Assembly: GCA_045597865.1 (NCBI GenBank)
Contig: JAZLKX010000052.1
Coordinates: forward strand, 192,001 to 256,000
Length of the DNA stretch: 64,000 bases
Direction: 5' to 3'
From: Bacilli bacterium
GTDB taxonomy: Bacteria > Bacillota_I > Bacilli_A > RFN20 > CAG-826
The position numbers and the translations under genes were made by a program. Shown one piece after another: positions 4,277-9,889 of this stretch (position 1 is the stretch's first letter; every line of letters begins with the position of its first letter). The notes under the pieces are model-generated. The model was not told the origin of the DNA and did not search any database. It was given only the letters and a program-made list of their open reading frames with translations.

Positions 4277-5686
4277 ATGTTTACTTGTAAAATTTGTAAT
4301 GAAACGTTTGAAAAAATCAATGGTTTACTGACACATATACAGTTCAACCATAAAGAACATTCGCCTGAGTCTTACTATAGACAACATATCATGGCTGTTG
4401 GTGAAGGCTTTTGTAAAACATGTGGTAAACCAACAAAGTTCAATGGTATCAAAACCGGCTATCAAACATACTGTAATCGTAAGTGTGTATGGGCAGATCC
4501 TGAAATCAAAGCAAAGCGTAAAATTACAAATAGCGCCAAGACTGATTCTGAAATTCTTGAATGGAAAATAAGAAATAAAGAATCCCGGCTAAAAAAGAAT
4601 AACGGTAATTATTCGCCGTTACATGACTTAGCTAAAAGACAGGAAATTAGCGAAAAGCATTTTAAGGAATACTTTGCTAAGTGTAACTGCGAATTTATTA
4701 AGTATGATGATAAAGTTCACTTTCGCTGCAATAAATGCGGCTGTGAAGATGCATTTACTCGTAGTGTTATTGACCGTTATGACAGAACTAATGATTATGA
4801 CGTTTGCCACTATTGTAATGATAGGCGTTTTGTTAGTACGCCTGAACGCGAAATACGTAAATACATAGAAACGTTTTATGAAGGCAAGATAATTTCAGGC
4901 GATAGACTTGTTTTGAATGGAAAAGAACTAGACCTATATTTTCCTGACAAAAAGCTCGCTATTGAATATGATGGTTTTCATTGGCATAATGAAAACTGCA
5001 TTCCCGCAGGCTATCATCTAGAAAAAACAAATGCATGTGAAGCAAATGGTATTCAACTTATTCATATATTTGAAACTGAATGGTTGAATAAGCCAGAAAT
5101 CGTTAAAAGTAGAATACGAAACTTATTTGAAGGCAACAATAGGATCTTTGCACGTAAATGCAGGATTAAGGAAATATCAGCAGATGCCGCAAAAACTTTT
5201 TTACAGCAGAATCATATACAGGGGTGGTGTTGCTCAAAATGGCGATATGGTCTTGAATACAATGGCGAGCTAGTTTCGCTTATGACATTTGGTAAATCAC
5301 GATTTAAAGATGAATATGAACTTTTAAGATTTGCGAATAAGCTAGATACGAATGTTATTGGCGGAGCATCAAGACTTTTTAAACACTTTGTTAATGACCA
5401 TTCAGAAATAAAGAAAATCATTTCTTTCGCTGACCGTAGATGGAGCATTGGCAACTTATATGAAAAAATTGGTTTTACTAAAATTGGCGCAACGCCGCCA
5501 TCATACTACTACAGAATAGACAATGAACTTAAGAACCGAGTCAACTTTCAAAAACATAAGCTCGTTGCTAATGGTGCTGACCCTAATAAGACCGAACATG
5601 AGATTATGAAAGAACGCGGCTATCTAAGAATATACGACTGTGGCTGTCTGAAGTATGAATGGTCTGATGATTCACAATCAGTATAA
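4277..5686 (+). CDS. Free-standing homing endonuclease, Vsr/DUF559-like nuclease with N-terminal zinc fingers
   Basis: C2H2 finger CKIC...H...H, further CxxC pairs, ELDLYFPDKKLAIEYDGFHWH, LIHIFETEW, and a C-terminal ELLRFA...GGASRLF...SFADRRWS domain typical of phage Hef-like endonucleases. Confidence 0.85.
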   Translation: MFTCKICNETFEKINGLLTHIQFNHKEHSPESYYRQHIMAVGEGFCKTCGKPTKFNGIKTGYQTYCNRKCVWADPEIKAKRKITNSAKTDSEILEWKIRNKESRLKKNNGNYSPLHDLAKRQEISEKHFKEYFAKCNCEFIKYDDKVHFRCNKCGCEDAFTRSVIDRYDRTNDYDVCHYCNDRRFVSTPEREIRKYIETFYEGKIISGDRLVLNGKELDLYFPDKKLAIEYDGFHWHNENCIPAGYHLEKTNACEANGIQLIHIFETEWLNKPEIVKSRIRNLFEGNNRIFARKCRIKEISADAAKTFLQQNHIQGWCCSKWRYGLEYNGELVSLMTFGKSRFKDEYELLRFANKLDTNVIGGASRLFKHFVNDHSEIKKIISFADRRWSIGNLYEKIGFTKIGATPPSYYYRIDNELKNRVNFQKHKLVANGADPNKTEHEIMKERGYLRIYDCGCLKYEWSDDSQSV

Positions 5687-5693: not shown

Positions 5694-6017
5694 ATGGCGA
5701 ACATAACATATCGTACAAACTTTCTAAAGGACGTTGAAGTTGATGACATTGTTCAGAAAGACATGTCATCAATGAATTTTGGCGATTTTGATTTTGGTCC
5801 TGTTAGCTATTATAAATGTACGCAATTTGATATTGGCCGTCCAGATTTAATTTCATACAAGATTTACGGAACAACGAATTACTGGTGGTTCTTGATGTGG
5901 TTCAATGGCGTATCTGACGCGTGGAATGATATTAGAGAAAATATGCTAATTGCTTTCCCGTCATTAGATATGGCACGTGAAGCACTAAAGTTTGCTCGTA
6001 AGAGGAGTAACAAGTAA
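5694..6017 (+). CDS. Baseplate wedge protein, T4 gp53-like (LysM-like)
   Basis: RPDLISYKIYGTTNYWWFLMWFNG motif. Confidence 0.85.
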   Translation: MANITYRTNFLKDVEVDDIVQKDMSSMNFGDFDFGPVSYYKCTQFDIGRPDLISYKIYGTTNYWWFLMWFNGVSDAWNDIRENMLIAFPSLDMAREALKFARKRSNK

Positions 6018-6402: not shown

Positions 6403-6771
6403 ATGAATCTTTTTGAACAGTACATTAAGAATGCCTGCCGTTTTGTTAACGAAGGCTTAGAAGATGAACTACCAGCTGAAGCTCCAGCCGAACTTCCTGC
6501 TGAAGGTGGCGAAGAACTTCCTCTAGATGGTGAAGAAGAACTTCCTACTGAAGGTGATGAAGACCAGGCATGCGAAGAATCTATGGAAGATCTTAAGGCA
6601 CAGATTGCTGACCTTCAGAGTCAGGTTACTGAATTGCTTGAACTTGTTCAGTCATTGACAGGCGAAGCTGCTGAAGGCGCTGATGATCTTGCTGGTGAAG
6701 ACGAACTTCCTGCCGAAGGTGATGAAGACCTTGCTGGCGAAGATCCTGGCTTCGAAGACGAAGACATTTAA
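6403..6771 (+). CDS. Highly acidic protein with a coiled coil (prohead core/scaffold-like)
   Basis: ELPAEG-type repeats, AAGGAG SD, AATAAATA upstream. Confidence 0.7.
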   Translation: MNLFEQYIKNACRFVNEGLEDELPAEAPAELPAEGGEELPLDGEEELPTEGDEDQACEESMEDLKAQIADLQSQVTELLELVQSLTGEAAEGADDLAGEDELPAEGDEDLAGEDPGFEDEDI

Positions 6772-6803
6772 TTTCTAGTTTCACGGGAAAGGCTTATACA
6801 TAG

Positions 6804-6833
6804 GCTAGGGAAATAAAACTCCCTAGCTTTTTT
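6804..6833 (+). terminator. Rho-independent terminator
   Basis: GCTAGGGA-aataaaac-TCCCTAGC followed by T6. Confidence 0.85.
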
Positions 6834-6869
6834 ATGTCTAAAAAATGATTATATTTGATACTGTAAAAT

Positions 6870-7161
6870 CATTAAGCCGTTTCCTCGGAACGAAACTCAA
6901 CCCAATGACGCTGTCGGTAGAGGGACGCCATTTGAGCTAGAATTGCTTAGCTCGTGAATAGAAATGAAAATGCAATAGCGAAGTGGAAACTAGCCCTTTC
7001 CACATATAGCCGCCAATAGCATTATGGGATGTAGCCGGAATACAGGTTGACCGCTCCGTAAGCCCATAAGTGAGTCTACTTACAACGTCATACGGTTCAC
7101 CAGTCAAAACAAAGACTCGGTATTCTTGACGGTAAGCTCTACCGGGCTTACTGTCTCCGGT
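6870..7161 (+). ncRNA. Candidate structured non-coding RNA of unknown class
   Basis: Intergenic and GC-richer than its flanks; long-range helix 6905-6921/7075-7091 encloses three hairpins; closing helix 6875-6880/7092-7097; 3' hairpin 7128-7155. Strand inferred from G-U pairs. Confidence 0.6.
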
Positions 7162-7206
7162 TACCATATCAAACAAAGAATAAATAATAAAAAGGAATTG
7201 TTTAAT

Positions 7207-7824
7207 ATGGGAATTAAATCAATTTGGGATAACACATTTTATCAAAAACCACCATTACCAAAATGGTGCTTTGAAGTCGTTTTTGATGATTTATTTAAGC
7301 ACCATACTCAATACGCAAACACATTAAATCAAGCGATAGTAAACTGCCAATGGGGTAAACGCGAAATTAGTATTGTTAAAACTTACTATGCTGGTATTGA
7401 AGCAAACTATCCTGGTCGTGTTCAAAACACAGGTGAGCTTAATCTTACTTTTAATGAAAACACGGGTATGGAAGTATCGCGTATTTTGGAAGAACTATTT
7501 AACGGTGAATGTTCTAATGACCGTTACTTTGATGATAACAGCCGTGATAGAGGATACATTTATAATAAAGATTTTACAAAGATCGGCCGAAACATTACAC
7601 TAAGAATCCATCGTCCTGACGTTAACATGGAAATGAACCAGGATGGTGCTGAGGCTATATGCGGCGAGGTTACATTTTATAACTGTATTTTAACATCAAT
7701 CAATGAAGAAGAATTTAGCTATGAAAGCGTTGATGATACAGTTACACGTACCGCAAGATTTTCATATGATTATATGATTGATAATCGTAAGAAATTTTCT
7801 GGCCGACCAATGAAGGGAGGTTAA
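7207..7824 (+). CDS. Tail tube-like protein (gp19/gp54 fold paralogue)
   Basis: NYPGRVQNTGELNLTFNE ... FSYDY; start moved to ATG 7207 (AAGGA SD, AATAAATA 7179-7186). Confidence 0.75.
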   Translation: MGIKSIWDNTFYQKPPLPKWCFEVVFDDLFKHHTQYANTLNQAIVNCQWGKREISIVKTYYAGIEANYPGRVQNTGELNLTFNENTGMEVSRILEELFNGECSNDRYFDDNSRDRGYIYNKDFTKIGRNITLRIHRPDVNMEMNQDGAEAICGEVTFYNCILTSINEEEFSYESVDDTVTRTARFSYDYMIDNRKKFSGRPMKGG

Positions 7825-7828
7825 ATAA

Positions 7829-8464
7829 ATGTGGACGAAAGCTAAATCACCTAACCAAGCCAAGCCTGGGTCAAATACATTACTTGAAAGTAAAAATGTC
7901 AATGGTTCATTTACTAAGTATCAAATGCACGGCGGCATGGCATCGCCTGTGCCTAACTGGTTATTTGATATAAAGTTTCAATGGACTAAGTGGGCTAAAG
8001 AAACATTTGATATTGCTGATGGCGAAAATTTAAACGATTCATTTAAGTGCATAAAAGCAGACCTTCCTGAATACTCACAGGCAACAAAAGAAGTTTGGTA
8101 TTTTGGTACCAAAAAGACATTCGTGATAGGCCGTGATATGTCAGGTGAAACTGTACTTGAATTTTGGCTTCGTAAAGGTGCACAACTTAAAGACGACGAT
8201 AATGATAAACTTGAACTTTTAGATGTTCTTGTGCCTGACCGTTCTATGAACCGTCAAGATAAATATCAACACTATGAATGGGTTCGTTTATTTGATGCAA
8301 TAGAAATTGATATGCTTAACATTGATACTGATGTGCATAGAACCTATAAATTGATTAACCCAATAGTTACCAATTTTTCACACAGCGGTGAATTGAACTA
8401 TGAAGGCGAAGAAGGATTAAAAATTTCTATTACTGTTCATTATGATATGTGGGAGCAGTTCTAA
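7829..8464 (+). CDS. Tail tube-like paralogue
   Basis: ADLPEYS...YFGTKKTFVIGRDMSGETVLEF ... LNYE...ISITVHYD. Confidence 0.6.
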   Translation: MWTKAKSPNQAKPGSNTLLESKNVNGSFTKYQMHGGMASPVPNWLFDIKFQWTKWAKETFDIADGENLNDSFKCIKADLPEYSQATKEVWYFGTKKTFVIGRDMSGETVLEFWLRKGAQLKDDDNDKLELLDVLVPDRSMNRQDKYQHYEWVRLFDAIEIDMLNIDTDVHRTYKLINPIVTNFSHSGELNYEGEEGLKISITVHYDMWEQF

Positions 8465-9889
8465 ATGTCAGCCGGTTCTATTTTTTGTGAATACATTTAT
8501 GGCTCGTTTTTGTTAGTGTCAGCTGCACTTGAAGTTGGCATGTCATTGGCAAAGACGACTTTAGCAGTGTTGTCTACGATGTTTGATTCCTGCATTAGTT
8601 TATTTAGGTTTACGATTGATGTAGGCGTAAAAATGATTATGGACGGTGTGAAGGTTTTACAGAAACAGCTAGTTGACTTAATATGGGATGGTTATCAGGA
8701 TGAAGAAGAACTAGACCCTGAAACTGGTGAAATGGTTAAAACTGGTAAAAAGAAATCAAAGTTCTGTAATAACTTATATAAATGTAACATTTTTATTGAA
8801 GAATTGACTGATAGTAATTCACTTATTTGTAAGACTTTAATTTCGTTAGGTGTAATTACAGCTGAACAGCAACAGTATGTAAATGAAATCATTTCTGAAT
8901 ACGATGAGTTTATGAATACAATATGTACTTATGGTTTTACATTCAACTTTGGCATTTCAGCGTTAAAGAAACTGCTTAACTGGTATAAAAAACAGTTGCA
9001 TAAATTTCTTGATATGATTGAACGCAAGAAAGAAGACATTCGCCGTTTTATTCAAAAGTACATGAATAAGCTACAGGATTCTGGTATATTTGATATGCTA
9101 GCAAAATTAAGAAAGTTCTTTAACTGTATTCTCGACCAAACCGATTCTTGTACCTCTCTGAAAACCACTGAAAACTTCTATACGAATGCCTTAAAGAAAA
9201 TGAAAATTGAGGAATCAGGAACAGGCGGATATAAACTTGAAGCTAGTACAAACAATTCAATGATGAATGCATTTGACGCACGCATAAACCAAATCAATAA
9301 TGCGAAGGATGAAATTCAGAAAGGGATGGACGCTTTGGCAAGTCCGTCAGCAATTCGCGCAGCATCAAAAGCATTTAACTTGTCAAAACATGTTTTCCCA
9401 GGCGGTATGAATTGGCCTGATATTCAGAAAGGTCGCTGGCAAAAGAACTCAATGGTAAAATACTTCACAGCTAAGAAAGACAAGTTCATGGAAATATTCA
9501 TGGGAAGACATAAAGAAAAACTTCCAGGCGATACATCAACTGAGTTCTTACTTGGCGGCATGAAAATCAATGATAAGACTGGTAAAATTGTCATTGATGT
9601 AAATGGTGTTCGTGAGGAAATTGATATGAATGATCCGGCTACTGCAAACGCATACGCTAGTGCTGTTCAGTATCATGTTTTGGCTAATCCTATTGAGTAT
9701 TTCGTTGAAGGCGATGAGAACGCTGATGCACCTGATGCGTTCTGTTATAATGGTGAAATTATTTCCGCGCTTCGTGCATCATTAATGATTGCGGTTGAAC
9801 ATGATACAGAAATGGAAAAATTCTGTGATGAACGCGTTGCTGGTGTTGCTGGTAGATTACGTGAAGATCAGTTAATGGTTGAATGGTGA
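8465..9889 (+). CDS. Hypothetical helical protein (late region)
   Basis: 474-aa ORF abutting both neighbours. Confidence 0.7.
   Translation: MSAGSIFCEYIYGSFLLVSAALEVGMSLAKTTLAVLSTMFDSCISLFRFTIDVGVKMIMDGVKVLQKQLVDLIWDGYQDEEELDPETGEMVKTGKKKSKFCNNLYKCNIFIEELTDSNSLICKTLISLGVITAEQQQYVNEIISEYDEFMNTICTYGFTFNFGISALKKLLNWYKKQLHKFLDMIERKKEDIRRFIQKYMNKLQDSGIFDMLAKLRKFFNCILDQTDSCTSLKTTENFYTNALKKMKIEESGTGGYKLEASTNNSMMNAFDARINQINNAKDEIQKGMDALASPSAIRAASKAFNLSKHVFPGGMNWPDIQKGRWQKNSMVKYFTAKKDKFMEIFMGRHKEKLPGDTSTEFLLGGMKINDKTGKIVIDVNGVREEIDMNDPATANAYASAVQYHVLANPIEYFVEGDENADAPDAFCYNGEIISALRASLMIAVEHDTEMEKFCDERVAGVAGRLREDQLMVEW

Follow-up and report, generated by a model that had tools for sequence, protein, structure and literature searches.

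A conserved pseudoknotted RNA with cow-rumen-2 as its core, encoded in four copies by a giant T4-like phage

Main

ROOL and GOLLD are described as large, ornate RNAs of phages and prophages in Weinberg 2017 and in a cryo-EM preprint (10.1101/2024.12.08.627333). Cow-rumen-2 (Rfam RF02947) was discovered by Weinberg et al. 2017 (PMC5737381), its structure was revised in Rfam 15 (PMC11701678) and its Rfam type is 'Gene; sRNA'. The word 'cow-rumen' is absent from the main text of PMC5737381, the original description being in the supplements; among the papers listed, judged mostly from titles and the starts of abstracts, cow-rumen-2 is treated nowhere beyond a table of the Rfam 15 paper.

Here we describe an RNA gene on the forward strand of a 64,000-nucleotide stretch of DNA (hereafter the window), which has cow-rumen-2 at its centre. 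To our knowledge, no carrier of cow-rumen-2 was previously known. The RNA resembles ROOL and GOLLD in being large, many-helixed, pseudoknotted and linked to phages, and in having been found by comparative genomics partly from cow rumen data. It differs from both in that it matches neither their sequences nor their models, and in being approximately 320 nt long as against approximately 580 nt or more. Set against ROOL and GOLLD, a position near a tRNA cluster is seen for only one of the four copies on the carrier contig.

More distant likenesses are offered by other systems. In T4, the start sites of the late genes e, soc and I-TevI are masked in early read-through transcripts; at the locus described here an upstream repeat (R2) could likewise base-pair around the start codon and enclose a late-promoter-like box in its loop, but this arrangement is clear in about five loci only and cannot explain a large conserved RNA. 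The pRNA of phi29, an early-made phage RNA, has mutually complementary loops. Our RNA is similarly phage-encoded, structured and presumably early-made, with lineage-specific loop sequences, whereas its repeats R1 and R2 are alike rather than complementary and no Rfam match to pRNA was detected at E up to 10. Finally, ColE1 RNA II and the T4 oriF and oriG transcripts prime DNA synthesis through an R-loop; the present locus also has a promoter-proximal RNA followed by a tract that could form a stable RNA–DNA hybrid, in several copies per phage genome, but the copies show no GC-skew signal.

Identity and extent of the RNA

A covariance-model search matched positions 6977–7082 of the forward strand to RF02947 over its full length (model positions 1–106 of 106), with a score of 106.4 bits and an E value of 1.4e-19; the gathering score of the family is 66 bits. 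The conserved unpaired blocks of the model, AUAGCCGCCA, GAUGUAGCCGG, ACAGG and CCGUAAG, are all present in the window, with posterior '*' throughout the cmscan alignment, and the helices of the model are shared as well: those at 6983–89/6997–7003 and 7022–28/7063–69 are kept through compensating changes in relatives, and the inner helices are 100% paired. The core is almost certainly cow-rumen-2, and the description of this RNA as unrecognised in the original prediction, which was made from the sequence alone, no longer holds. All 17 viral loci and all 14 additional metagenome loci likewise exceed the cut-off of the model.

Conservation extends beyond the Rfam core on both sides. The whole conserved RNA is placed at 6864–7181 (+), approximately 320 nt, with both ends inferred from the limits of conservation in alignments, and a full-element nhmmer profile matches 42 of 49 metagenome loci over nearly the entire length. 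As judged from these alignments, the RNA is about three times the length of the Rfam entry, which represents the middle third alone. The name, type and model of the RF02947 entry, the parts that were examined, hold no 5′ domain, pseudoknot, 3′ hairpin, direct repeats, phage origin or multiple copies per genome. The homologue set used below comprises 44 distinct full-length sequences, drawn from the three other copies on the same phage contig and from loci in viral and metagenomic data.

RNase P RNA, introns, 6S, SRP, ribozymes, ROOL, GOLLD and pRNA each have models in Rfam 15. In a cmscan of positions 6700–7300 at E up to 10, none of RNase P RNA, group I and II introns, 6S, SRP, the known ribozymes, ROOL, GOLLD or pRNA was matched, nor was any tRNA or tmRNA; besides RF02947, the search returned six chance-level matches only, of 8.7–23.5 bits and far below their own cut-offs. 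ARAGORN likewise detected no tRNA or tmRNA in the window. These results agree with the earlier view that the element is not a tRNA, tmRNA, RNase P RNA or group I intron. What we take to be a short likeness to helix P4 of RNase P, GUAAGUCC/GGGCUUAC, carries no weight in the identification.

Secondary structure

Counts for the six helices of the original prediction were determined on a MAFFT alignment (A1) of 20 related sequences, which form 19 distinct rows. Column-by-column covariation on MAFFT alignments was noisy because the variable parts were out of register, and an unconstrained best-complement search chose chance partners; both approaches were replaced by self-versus-cross permutation tests. 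The architecture comprises, from 5′ to 3′, a four-helix domain, a hairpin (P2) whose loop forms a pseudoknot, the Rfam core, and a 3′ hairpin (P5) flanked by the direct repeats R1 and R2.

The 5′ domain (6878–6927) is composed of helices P1a (6878–81/6924–27), P1b (6883–86/6920–23), P1c (6891–93/6914–16) and P1d (6897–99/6906–08), with a nearly invariant loop, CAAC(C/U)CAAUG. P1a and P1b together are 90.1% paired, with both sides changed in six of eight pairs, and P1c and P1d are 89.5% and 100% paired, respectively. The self-versus-cross value of P1a was reached in 0 of 5000 permutations, and RNAalifold recovers P1b and P1d. The P2 hairpin, GAGCTA/TAGCTC (6934–39/6948–53), differs in sequence and length between subfamilies and is visible by eye in every sequence and subfamily; it is 51.9% paired on the alignment, a value depressed by MAFFT misalignment, and both sides have changed in all six pairs. 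In the pseudoknot PK1 (6942–6976), the P2 loop ATTGC (6942–46) pairs with GCAAT (6972–76), directly 5′ of the Rfam core. Both sides have changed in 5/5 pairs (72.6% paired on a structure-blind alignment), the partners differing between subfamilies, for example TGTAG/CTACA, TGTGG/CCACA, GGTGC/GCACC and ACTGTA/TACAGT, and the self value of 4.75 against a cross value of 4.00 was reached in 0 of 5000 permutations.

Within the core (6977–7082), the covarying helices d (6983–89/6997–7003; 93.9% of cells paired) and e (7022–28/7063–69; 90.5%) have each changed on both sides in seven of seven pairs. The core also contains many invariant unpaired bases, and its stems are capped by NNRA tetraloops (UUGA, GUGA, AUGA and GCAA). 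P5 (7128–37/7146–55) is 84.8% paired, with both sides changed in three of nine pairs and a nearly invariant 3′ side, RGGCUUAC-UGUCUCC. A further pairing is available between TAAGCC in the core (7059–64) and GGCTTA in P5 (7145–50), in 24 of 24 representatives. It overlaps helix e and P5 and is without covariation (2698/5000) because both sides are conserved; RNAalifold proposes a rival partner for the GGCTTA bases (6927–29 with 7144–46), which varies on one side only.

The pairings named in the original prediction all occur in the window sequence, and of its six helices four are conserved, namely P2 (its helix c), d, e and P5 (its helix f). The two long-range helices are not, and the nested architecture built on them is therefore unsupported. 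Helix a (6875–80/7092–97) is 71.1% paired with both sides changed in one of six pairs, and the 17-bp helix b (6905–21/7075–91) is 61.5% paired with both sides changed in two of 17, its middle columns being unpaired in 13–15 of 19 rows. Neither showed covariation in the alignment-free self-versus-cross test, where the observed value was reached in 2446 of 5000 permutations for helix a and in 624 of 5000 for helix b; moreover, both compete with the local helices P1a–P1d, which covary.

Pairing across the full structure model amounts to 85.8%, and 38 of its 55 pairs have changes in both strands. These values were reached by none of 500 shuffles, and slid controls pair 33–44%. The expectations of covariation in homologues and of folding better than shuffled sequence were thus borne out: on the forward strand, 6870–7161 folds at −85.6 kcal/mol, shuffled sequences averaging −72.2 (s.d. 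4.85; z = −2.76), and one of 200 shuffles folded as well. The reverse strand of the same segment has a z of −1.93 (6/200). The RNA is assigned to the forward strand because the Rfam match lies there and because many G–U pairs would become A–C mismatches if the reverse strand were read.

Direct repeats R1 and R2

P5 is flanked by a pair of direct repeats rich in purines, R1 (CGGTTCACCAGTCAAAACAAAGA, 7093–7115 (+)) and R2 (CGGTTACCATATCAAACAAAGAA, 7158–7180 (+)), with a spacing of 65–69 nt. Likeness of R1 to R2 is greater when both come from one sequence than when they come from different sequences (9.75 versus 8.18; 0/5000 permutations), and on the carrier contig the repeat motif is confined to the four RNA copies. 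Three repeat lineages are found among contigs, CAAACAAAGA, ACAGAAAGAAGA and ACAGAAAAAAAG.

Between paralogues on one contig (eight pairs), the repeats are 86–100% identical and the rest of the RNA 44–62%; between copies of the same paralogue type on different contigs (seven pairs), the repeats are 56–64% identical and the rest 57–73%. The repeats track the contig rather than the paralogue, which points to a genome-specific partner, and we tentatively propose, from this pattern of identities, that R1 and R2 may be sites for it. Local gene conversion or action at the DNA level could instead underlie the repeat likeness. In several subfamilies R1 lies in a loop closed by a helix with compensating variation (CAGCAG/CTGCTG, AACAG/CTGTT and CACCA/TGGTG; by eye), which suggests that the repeat is displayed at the RNA level.

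The phage carrier and its distribution

The RNA gene belongs to a giant T4-like phage. The carrier contig, of approximately 266 kb, encodes a gp23-type major head protein, a portal protein, a baseplate wedge protein and 26 tRNA genes, and holds four diverged paralogues of the RNA, at 41.8, 131.2, 199.0 and 259.7 kb, one of which is near the tRNA cluster. The RNA is present on IMG/VR viral contigs, and related phage contigs, fragments that are 16–54% complete by CheckV, carry one or two copies each. It was found in none of 100 relatives of the bin that were searched. Together with the covariation described above, these observations substantiate the original proposal of a multi-branch, phage-encoded non-coding RNA.

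Neither the RNA region nor the 2.7 kb that follow it gave a blastn match among 50,697 phage records, and the phage is without a close sequenced relative there. The bin contains no CRISPR-like array, no R-like sequence and only one 21-nt match to the carrier contig, and it provides no host link. A 17-nt word of R2 occurs at at least 117 loci of genome contigs; none among the matches listed carries the RNA, and these are chance matches. Part of the stretch recurs in sequencing runs that are annotated as gut, feces or viral metagenomes.

Promoter-like boxes, neighbouring genes and transcription

Upstream of the RNA, a pattern scan located a terminator-like hairpin with a T run at 6802–6829 (+), in agreement with the terminator placed here by the original prediction; it ends the gene of an acidic protein (6403–6771), and similar hairpins are visible by eye upstream of several homologues. 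The early-type box that had been noted as a TATATT is also recovered: the promoter-like box TATATTTG (6850–6857 (+)) follows an A-run and presumably serves the RNA gene as its promoter, transcription probably starting near 6864. A TAnnTT[TG][GT] box recurs 14–35 nt upstream of P1b, the first conserved helix, in 28 of the 44 homologues, and AAAA-N4-9-TTAWATTTK has 16 occurrences in the carrier contig. The upstream ORF runs in the opposite direction at 16 of 41 loci, and those copies therefore need a promoter of their own.

Downstream, the late promoter that had been proposed at 7179–7186 coincides with AATAAATA (+), which resembles the T4 late promoter, whose consensus is TATAAATA. Of the 44 homologues, 20 have an [AT]ATAAATA box no more than 110 nt beyond the first position of R2, where the background expectation is 0.038 boxes per 110 nt. 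The next gene (7207–7824 (+)) encodes a tail-tube-like protein of 205 residues (PHROG 45, E = 6e-07; PHROG 4542, E = 3.9e-05). The same tail-tube-like family is found downstream of seven of the 44 homologues.

A possible long hairpin at 7164–7210 (+) pairs CCATATCAAACAA (7164–76) with TTGTTTAATATGG (7198–7210), 12 of 13 positions being paired, such that the start codon (7207–09) lies in the 3′ strand and the late-promoter-like box in the loop. The corresponding complementarity between R2 and the start region is 13/13 in the closest relative (L006), 10 in L058, 9 in L010 and 9, including the start codon, in copy D of the carrier contig. The word TTT[AG]ATATG occurs only 12 times on the forward strand of the carrier contig, and the repeats therefore face no large set of similar start sites in trans.

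The RNA could be imagined as a cis-acting 5′ leader that controls the next gene, through start-codon masking, ribosome standby, mRNA stabilisation or antitermination, rather than as a free RNA. The downstream gene is on the same strand in 35 of 41 loci, often 20–60 nt away, and a pattern scan of the window found no terminator-like site after R2; both features fit a leader, as does the complementarity of R2 to the sequence around the start codon in L006, L010, copy D and the window itself. However, copy C and the L030/L064 type have a convergent gene downstream and no same-strand gene, the proteins encoded downstream form 18 clusters unrelated to one another, and 20 of the 44 copies have a late-promoter-like box of their own between RNA and gene. 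Moreover, approximately 320 nt with a pseudoknot far exceed what start-codon masking needs, and over all loci the test of R2 against the start region is weak and not significant (317/5000 permutations). We consider a leader unlikely, albeit the most probable of the alternatives. Because of the convergent genes and the unrelated downstream clusters, we lean slightly towards an RNA gene that acts independently of the gene downstream. The 35 loci with a same-strand gene weigh against a stand-alone RNA, as they also fit a cis-acting leader.

Sequence runs were compared at the level of contigs, from four runs of which one is an RNA library; starts, ends, strand and level are not readable from contigs. 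In the assembly of the RNA library, a near-identical relative spans 6597–7116, with pieces up to 7181, which shows presence in the library only. Contigs break at 7116 in DNA and RNA runs alike, which fits the repeats common to the paralogues rather than an RNA end. Positions 7216–7900 are spanned by contigs of the DNA runs and by none of the RNA run, a gap in contigs that carries no weight.

Possible functions

We favour a stand-alone, trans-acting phage RNA that may serve as a scaffold for a protein, with the repeats as docking or processing sites; from the sequence comparisons, we give this reading a probability of roughly 45%. The RNA would be transcribed from its own early-type promoter, and its fold would provide a scaffold in trans. 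Docking or processing at R1 and R2 would involve a single factor that differs between phage lineages and that would most likely be an RNA-binding protein or an endoribonuclease encoded by the phage. A single lineage-specific factor is the proposed reason why the repeats are near-identical among paralogues and change together between genomes. As there is no terminator after R2, transcription would continue into the next gene. In the window, pairing of R2 around the start codon would prevent translation of early read-through transcripts, and late transcripts, which would begin inside the loop of this pairing, would be translatable.

The many invariant unpaired bases of the core, at least one covarying pseudoknot and the NNRA tetraloops on its stems also recall a catalytic RNA, and self-cleaving ribozymes are common in phage DNA. 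R1 and R2 would then be cleavage or recognition sites, for instance for severing early read-through from late genes or for freeing the 3′ hairpin. Invariant bases in such number would fit a ribozyme too, which counts against the scaffold. However, the Rfam search at E up to 10 returned no ribozyme family, the common self-cleaving classes are much smaller than this RNA, and no internal segment complementary to the repeats is visible by eye, so that a ribozyme appears rather improbable.

Four copies spread across the genome, an early-type promoter-like box, and repeats that are purine-rich, direct rather than inverted, and genome-tracking are features that could belong to a replication-origin RNA, which would prime DNA synthesis through an R-loop at polypurine R1 and R2 or offer these as initiator sites. 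Against this proposal, the cumulative GC skew of the carrier contig climbs steadily without turning at any of the four copies, and nothing ties the sites to replication. The variable R1-to-R2 spacing and the compensating helix that closes the R1 loop (by eye), which suggests display at the RNA level, also argue against it, and we regard it as improbable.

Lone-repeat RNA anti-CRISPRs are known in phages. The arrangement of R1, a spacer-sized piece and R2 (23 + 42 + 23 nt) has the geometry of a mini-array, and the repeats vary with the genome in the way that CRISPR repeats vary with their cas genes; an anti-defence decoy would imitate a CRISPR repeat–spacer–repeat unit, or another host RNA, and soak up a defence protein. 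Such a role is very improbable given that R1 and R2 differ by insertions and deletions, that the 'spacer' is a conserved hairpin and that the bin is without a CRISPR-like array or R-like sequence; among the at least 117 loci with the 17-nt word of R2, two of the matches listed hold it twice, approximately 180–190 nt apart, and none is array-like.

That the element is no RNA gene has a negligible probability: the 31-residue ORF at 6845–6940 (+) and the 79-residue ORF at 6937–7176 (−) exist, but their frames are broken in the closest relatives and no ORF is conserved (stop-free runs range from 33 to 110 codons between homologues), as the original prediction of no credible ORF anticipated, and chance structure is at odds with the strong covariation and the E value of the Rfam match.

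Discussion

Cow-rumen-2, previously an orphan 106-nt metagenome motif, is now placed in the nearly complete genome of a giant T4-like phage. New here is that the motif forms the middle of a larger, pseudoknotted RNA, that a phage holds four old paralogues of it, and that two repeats change with the genome and not with the paralogue. Setting the repeat variants of different contigs beside their phage protein families offers a concrete handle on the partner of the trans-acting scaffold that we favour.

A bolder extension, which we judge unlikely, would see in the full-length RNA a large RNA machine of a class new to phages, in which the core would be catalytic or the heart of an RNA–protein particle and the repeats would act as a pair of sites for substrate or address. 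In that case each giant phage would possess a small family of RNAs tuned to one phage-encoded partner, and these RNAs might cleave or tag early transcripts where late gene blocks adjoin, or might sequester a host factor. If the core is catalytic or the centre of a particle, the RNA would join the few large functional RNAs of phages; if it is neither, the Rfam entry can still be extended, and gains a carrier.

Identity of the RNA

The original prediction placed a structured, non-coding RNA at 6870–7161. This stretch lies between an acidic-protein gene (6403–6771, + strand) and a tail-tube-like gene (7207–7824, + strand; matches to PHROG 45 and PHROG 4542). Comparison of ORFs and homologues shows no conserved ORF in this intergenic region. 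The + strand of 6870–7161 folds better than shuffled sequence (z = −2.76, with 1 of 200 shuffles equally good), and the − strand gives a weaker signal (z = −1.93). The Rfam 15 covariance-model scan of the entire window returned a sole above-cut-off match, to RF02947 (cow-rumen-2), at 6977–7082 on the + strand, which spans all 106 model positions with a score of 106.4 bits against a cut-off of 66 (E = 1.4e-19). The fold and the match together show that the predicted RNA is real and that its core, described as unrecognised, is already catalogued. Besides RF02947, a looser Rfam scan of 6700–7300 gave just six chance-level matches (8.7–23.5 bits, far under their cut-offs), and ARAGORN detected neither tRNA nor tmRNA genes in the window.

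Carrier phage and relatives

The contig carrying the RNA, C52, belongs to a 1.74-Mb metagenome bin (G000), and comprises 266,469 bp with a G+C content of 39.4%, compared with 31–37.5% for most other large contigs of the bin. Among its products are a portal, a baseplate wedge and a major head protein, the last with approximately 32% identity to gp23 of T4-like cyanophages. Its 26 tRNA genes are divided between the contig ends (343–3155 and 264062–265571), a layout suggestive of a circularly permuted phage genome that is complete and has a single large tRNA cluster. RF02947 was detected in none of the 100 relatives of the bin that were searched, and in none of 14 control genomes. On the basis of the G+C content, tRNA genes, structural proteins and the absence of RF02947 from the bin relatives searched, C52 is a giant T4-like phage binned together with a small bacterial genome, and the RNA is phage-encoded, as proposed. 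C52 encodes nearly all of its large ORFs on the + strand, and its GC skew stays positive over the whole length.

Genome sizes among relatives of the bin range from approximately 0.6 to 1.7 Mb. The bin itself (contamination 5.43%) combines the 266-kb contig of the phage with several small contigs at approximately 60–66% G+C, and is therefore mixed. Searches within the bin pointed to no host for the phage. Upstream of the RNA, a 469-residue ORF (4277–5686, + strand) with zinc-finger-like CxxC pairs matches homing/HNH endonuclease families (PHROG 3339, E = 4.8e-117; PHROG 559) and probably encodes a mobile endonuclease of the free-standing type; a small baseplate-wedge-like gene (5694–6017) lies directly downstream of it.

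C52 carries four RF02947 matches, at 41.8, 131.2, 199.0 (the window copy) and 259.7 kb (− strand), scoring 72–106 bits. Pattern scans yielded 17 viral loci, all 17 of which match RF02947 above the cut-off, and five viral records searched whole (CheckV completeness 16–54%) contain 2, 2, 1, 1 and 1 copies. Of the 49 loci from one metagenome scan, 42 match the whole-element profile; another 14 loci were compared with the Rfam model, and all of them match. Discarding five of 73 anchored copies that were cut by the locus end, and collapsing identical ones, left 44 distinct full-length sequences; L005 was excluded as lacking the exact anchor word.

Architecture of the full-length RNA

Alignments of the four C52 copies and all relatives define a conserved extent from approximately 10–15 nt 5′ of position 6878 to approximately 7181, so that the whole RNA is approximately three times the size of the Rfam model. 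RNAalifold predicted 34 pairs from an alignment of 20 sequences with the window architecture (A1), 19 of them with compensating changes. The structure model comprises, all on the + strand, P1a (6878–81/6924–27), P1b (6883–86/6920–23), P1c (6891–93/6914–16), P1d (6897–99/6906–08), P2 (6934–39/6948–53), a pseudoknot (6942–46/6972–76), the Rfam helices and P5 (7128–37/7146–55). Across the full model, pairing reaches 85.8% and 38 of the 55 pairs are changed on both sides, a result equalled by none of 500 shuffles; its covariation score is 0.495 versus 0.198, and slid controls were 33–44% paired. The pseudoknot words differ in almost every subfamily (ATTGC/GCAAT, TGTAG/CTACA, TGTGG/CCACA, GGTGC/GCACC, ACTGTA/TACAGT, GACGT/ACGTC and others). 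When 24 representatives less than 85% identical were tested by permutation, without alignment, the pseudoknot and P1a each gave 0/5000.

The predicted helices fared unevenly. Those corresponding to the Rfam helices and to P5 are conserved, and the one equivalent to P2 occurs in every subfamily, with variable length. The two long-range helices are confined to the window copy and its closest relatives: neither 6875–80/7092–97 (71.1% paired; 2446/5000) nor the 17-bp helix 6905–21/7075–91 (61.5% paired; 624/5000) covaries, both are incompatible with the P1 helices, which do covary, and the 17-bp helix is unpaired at its centre in 13–15 of 19 rows.

One or two extra hairpins of 40–60 nt lie between P2 and the core in the subfamilies of L019, L058, L065 and L066 and of L009, L011 and L018, indicating that this linker tolerates expansion. 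A distant form (L035, L037, L042, L044, L050, L054, L057 and L062) keeps the same Rfam core (101–109 bits in the seven of eight loci scanned, L054 being left out) but differs in its 5′ domain, which is longer, and in having a direct-repeat pair of its own. It sits upstream of a GroEL-looking protein, judged from sequence, or of a homologue of the window ORF 8465–9889.

Direct repeats flanking P5

Two mutually alike, purine-rich repeats, direct rather than inverted, flank P5 on the + strand: R1 (7093–7115), 3′ of the core, and R2 (7158–7180). Their likeness is 9.75 within sequences versus 8.18 across them (0/5000), the cross values being inflated by low complexity and kinship. The strongest observation on the repeats is that their identity tracks the contig. 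Between paralogues on one contig (eight pairs), the variable 36 repeat positions are 86–100% identical and the remaining RNA 44–62%; for one paralogue type compared across contigs (seven pairs), the values are 56–64% and 57–73%. On C52 the repeat words are confined to the four RNA copies. Inspection by eye revealed no complementary segment within the RNA; in the A1 alignment it showed R1 of several subfamilies within a loop whose closing helix carries compensating changes. The simplest reading is that one trans-acting factor, differing between phage lineages, would read both repeats. A 17-nt R2 word occurs twice, approximately 180–190 nt apart, in two Marinobacter genomes (L097 and L119) among the matches listed; this is probably a repeat of the genus with no relation to R2.

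Within R2, CCATATCAAACAA (7164–76) can form 12 of 13 pairs with TTGTTTAATATGG (7198–7210), which contains the start codon; the nearest relative, L006, can form 13 of 13. Elsewhere the count is 9 in L010, 9 in copy D of C52 (across its own start codon) and 10 in L058 (just within the coding region). T4 silences early read-through transcripts of some late genes by an arrangement of this kind. Because the test over all loci is weak (317/5000), we treat this pairing as a putative secondary adaptation in some copies.

Genomic setting and transcription signals

An upstream ORF on the opposite strand is present at 16 of 41 loci and a downstream ORF on the same strand at 35 of 41. The downstream proteins form 18 clusters, tail-tube-like in seven, baseplate-hub-like in seven (a weak match) and many of unknown function; in two loci the protein appears to be GroEL, as read from its sequence rather than by family search. 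In copy C of C52 and in the L030/L064 type, the gene facing the RNA is convergent, and the RNA therefore needs no downstream gene. In L064, 11 tRNA genes clustered on the opposite strand lie approximately 2.3 kb from the RNA.

A TAnnTT[TG][GT] box lies 14–35 nt 5′ of P1b in 28 of the 44 sequences; the other 16 include eight distant forms with a longer 5′ part and a few with near variants. The box resembles the Bacteroidota −7 element. With 16 occurrences in C52, the extended version AAAA-N4-9-TTAWATTTK probably serves as a general promoter of early type in the phage. In place of the early-type box, the L030/L064 subfamily has the late-promoter-like TATAAATA 5′ of the RNA. Another conserved word, NGGAA(A/T)(A/T)AAA, which may be a transcription-factor site, precedes the promoter-like box by approximately 40–45 nt in most copies (for example, window 6808–6818), in some within the loop of the preceding terminator hairpin and in others without a hairpin.

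Features like the terminator and late promoter proposed on either side of the RNA are both recognizable: a terminator-like hairpin (6802–6829, + strand) follows the acidic-protein gene, and a box at 7179–86 (+ strand) resembles the T4 late promoter. Such a box lies within 110 nt after the R2 start in 20 of 44 sequences, compared with 0.038 expected. The protein encoded directly upstream of the RNA is very acidic and has 122 residues, with ELPAEG/EELP repeats and no PHROG match. In one RNA-library run, a contig of a near-identical relative spans 6597–7116, with short pieces to 7181; as contigs, these indicate presence in that library only.

Interpretation

Among the possible roles, we rank a trans-acting scaffold with partner sites first, ahead of a cis-acting leader and then a ribozyme; an origin primer and, last, a defence decoy follow. 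As far as the literature searched and the Rfam entry go, the new elements here are the carrier phage, the RNA's true size with its extra domains, its pseudoknot, the paralogue set and the genome-following repeats, although the supplementary files of Weinberg et al. (2017), who found cow-rumen-2, could be relevant to part of this. The RNA is real, phage-borne and richly structured, and adds a member to a known, unexplained Rfam family.
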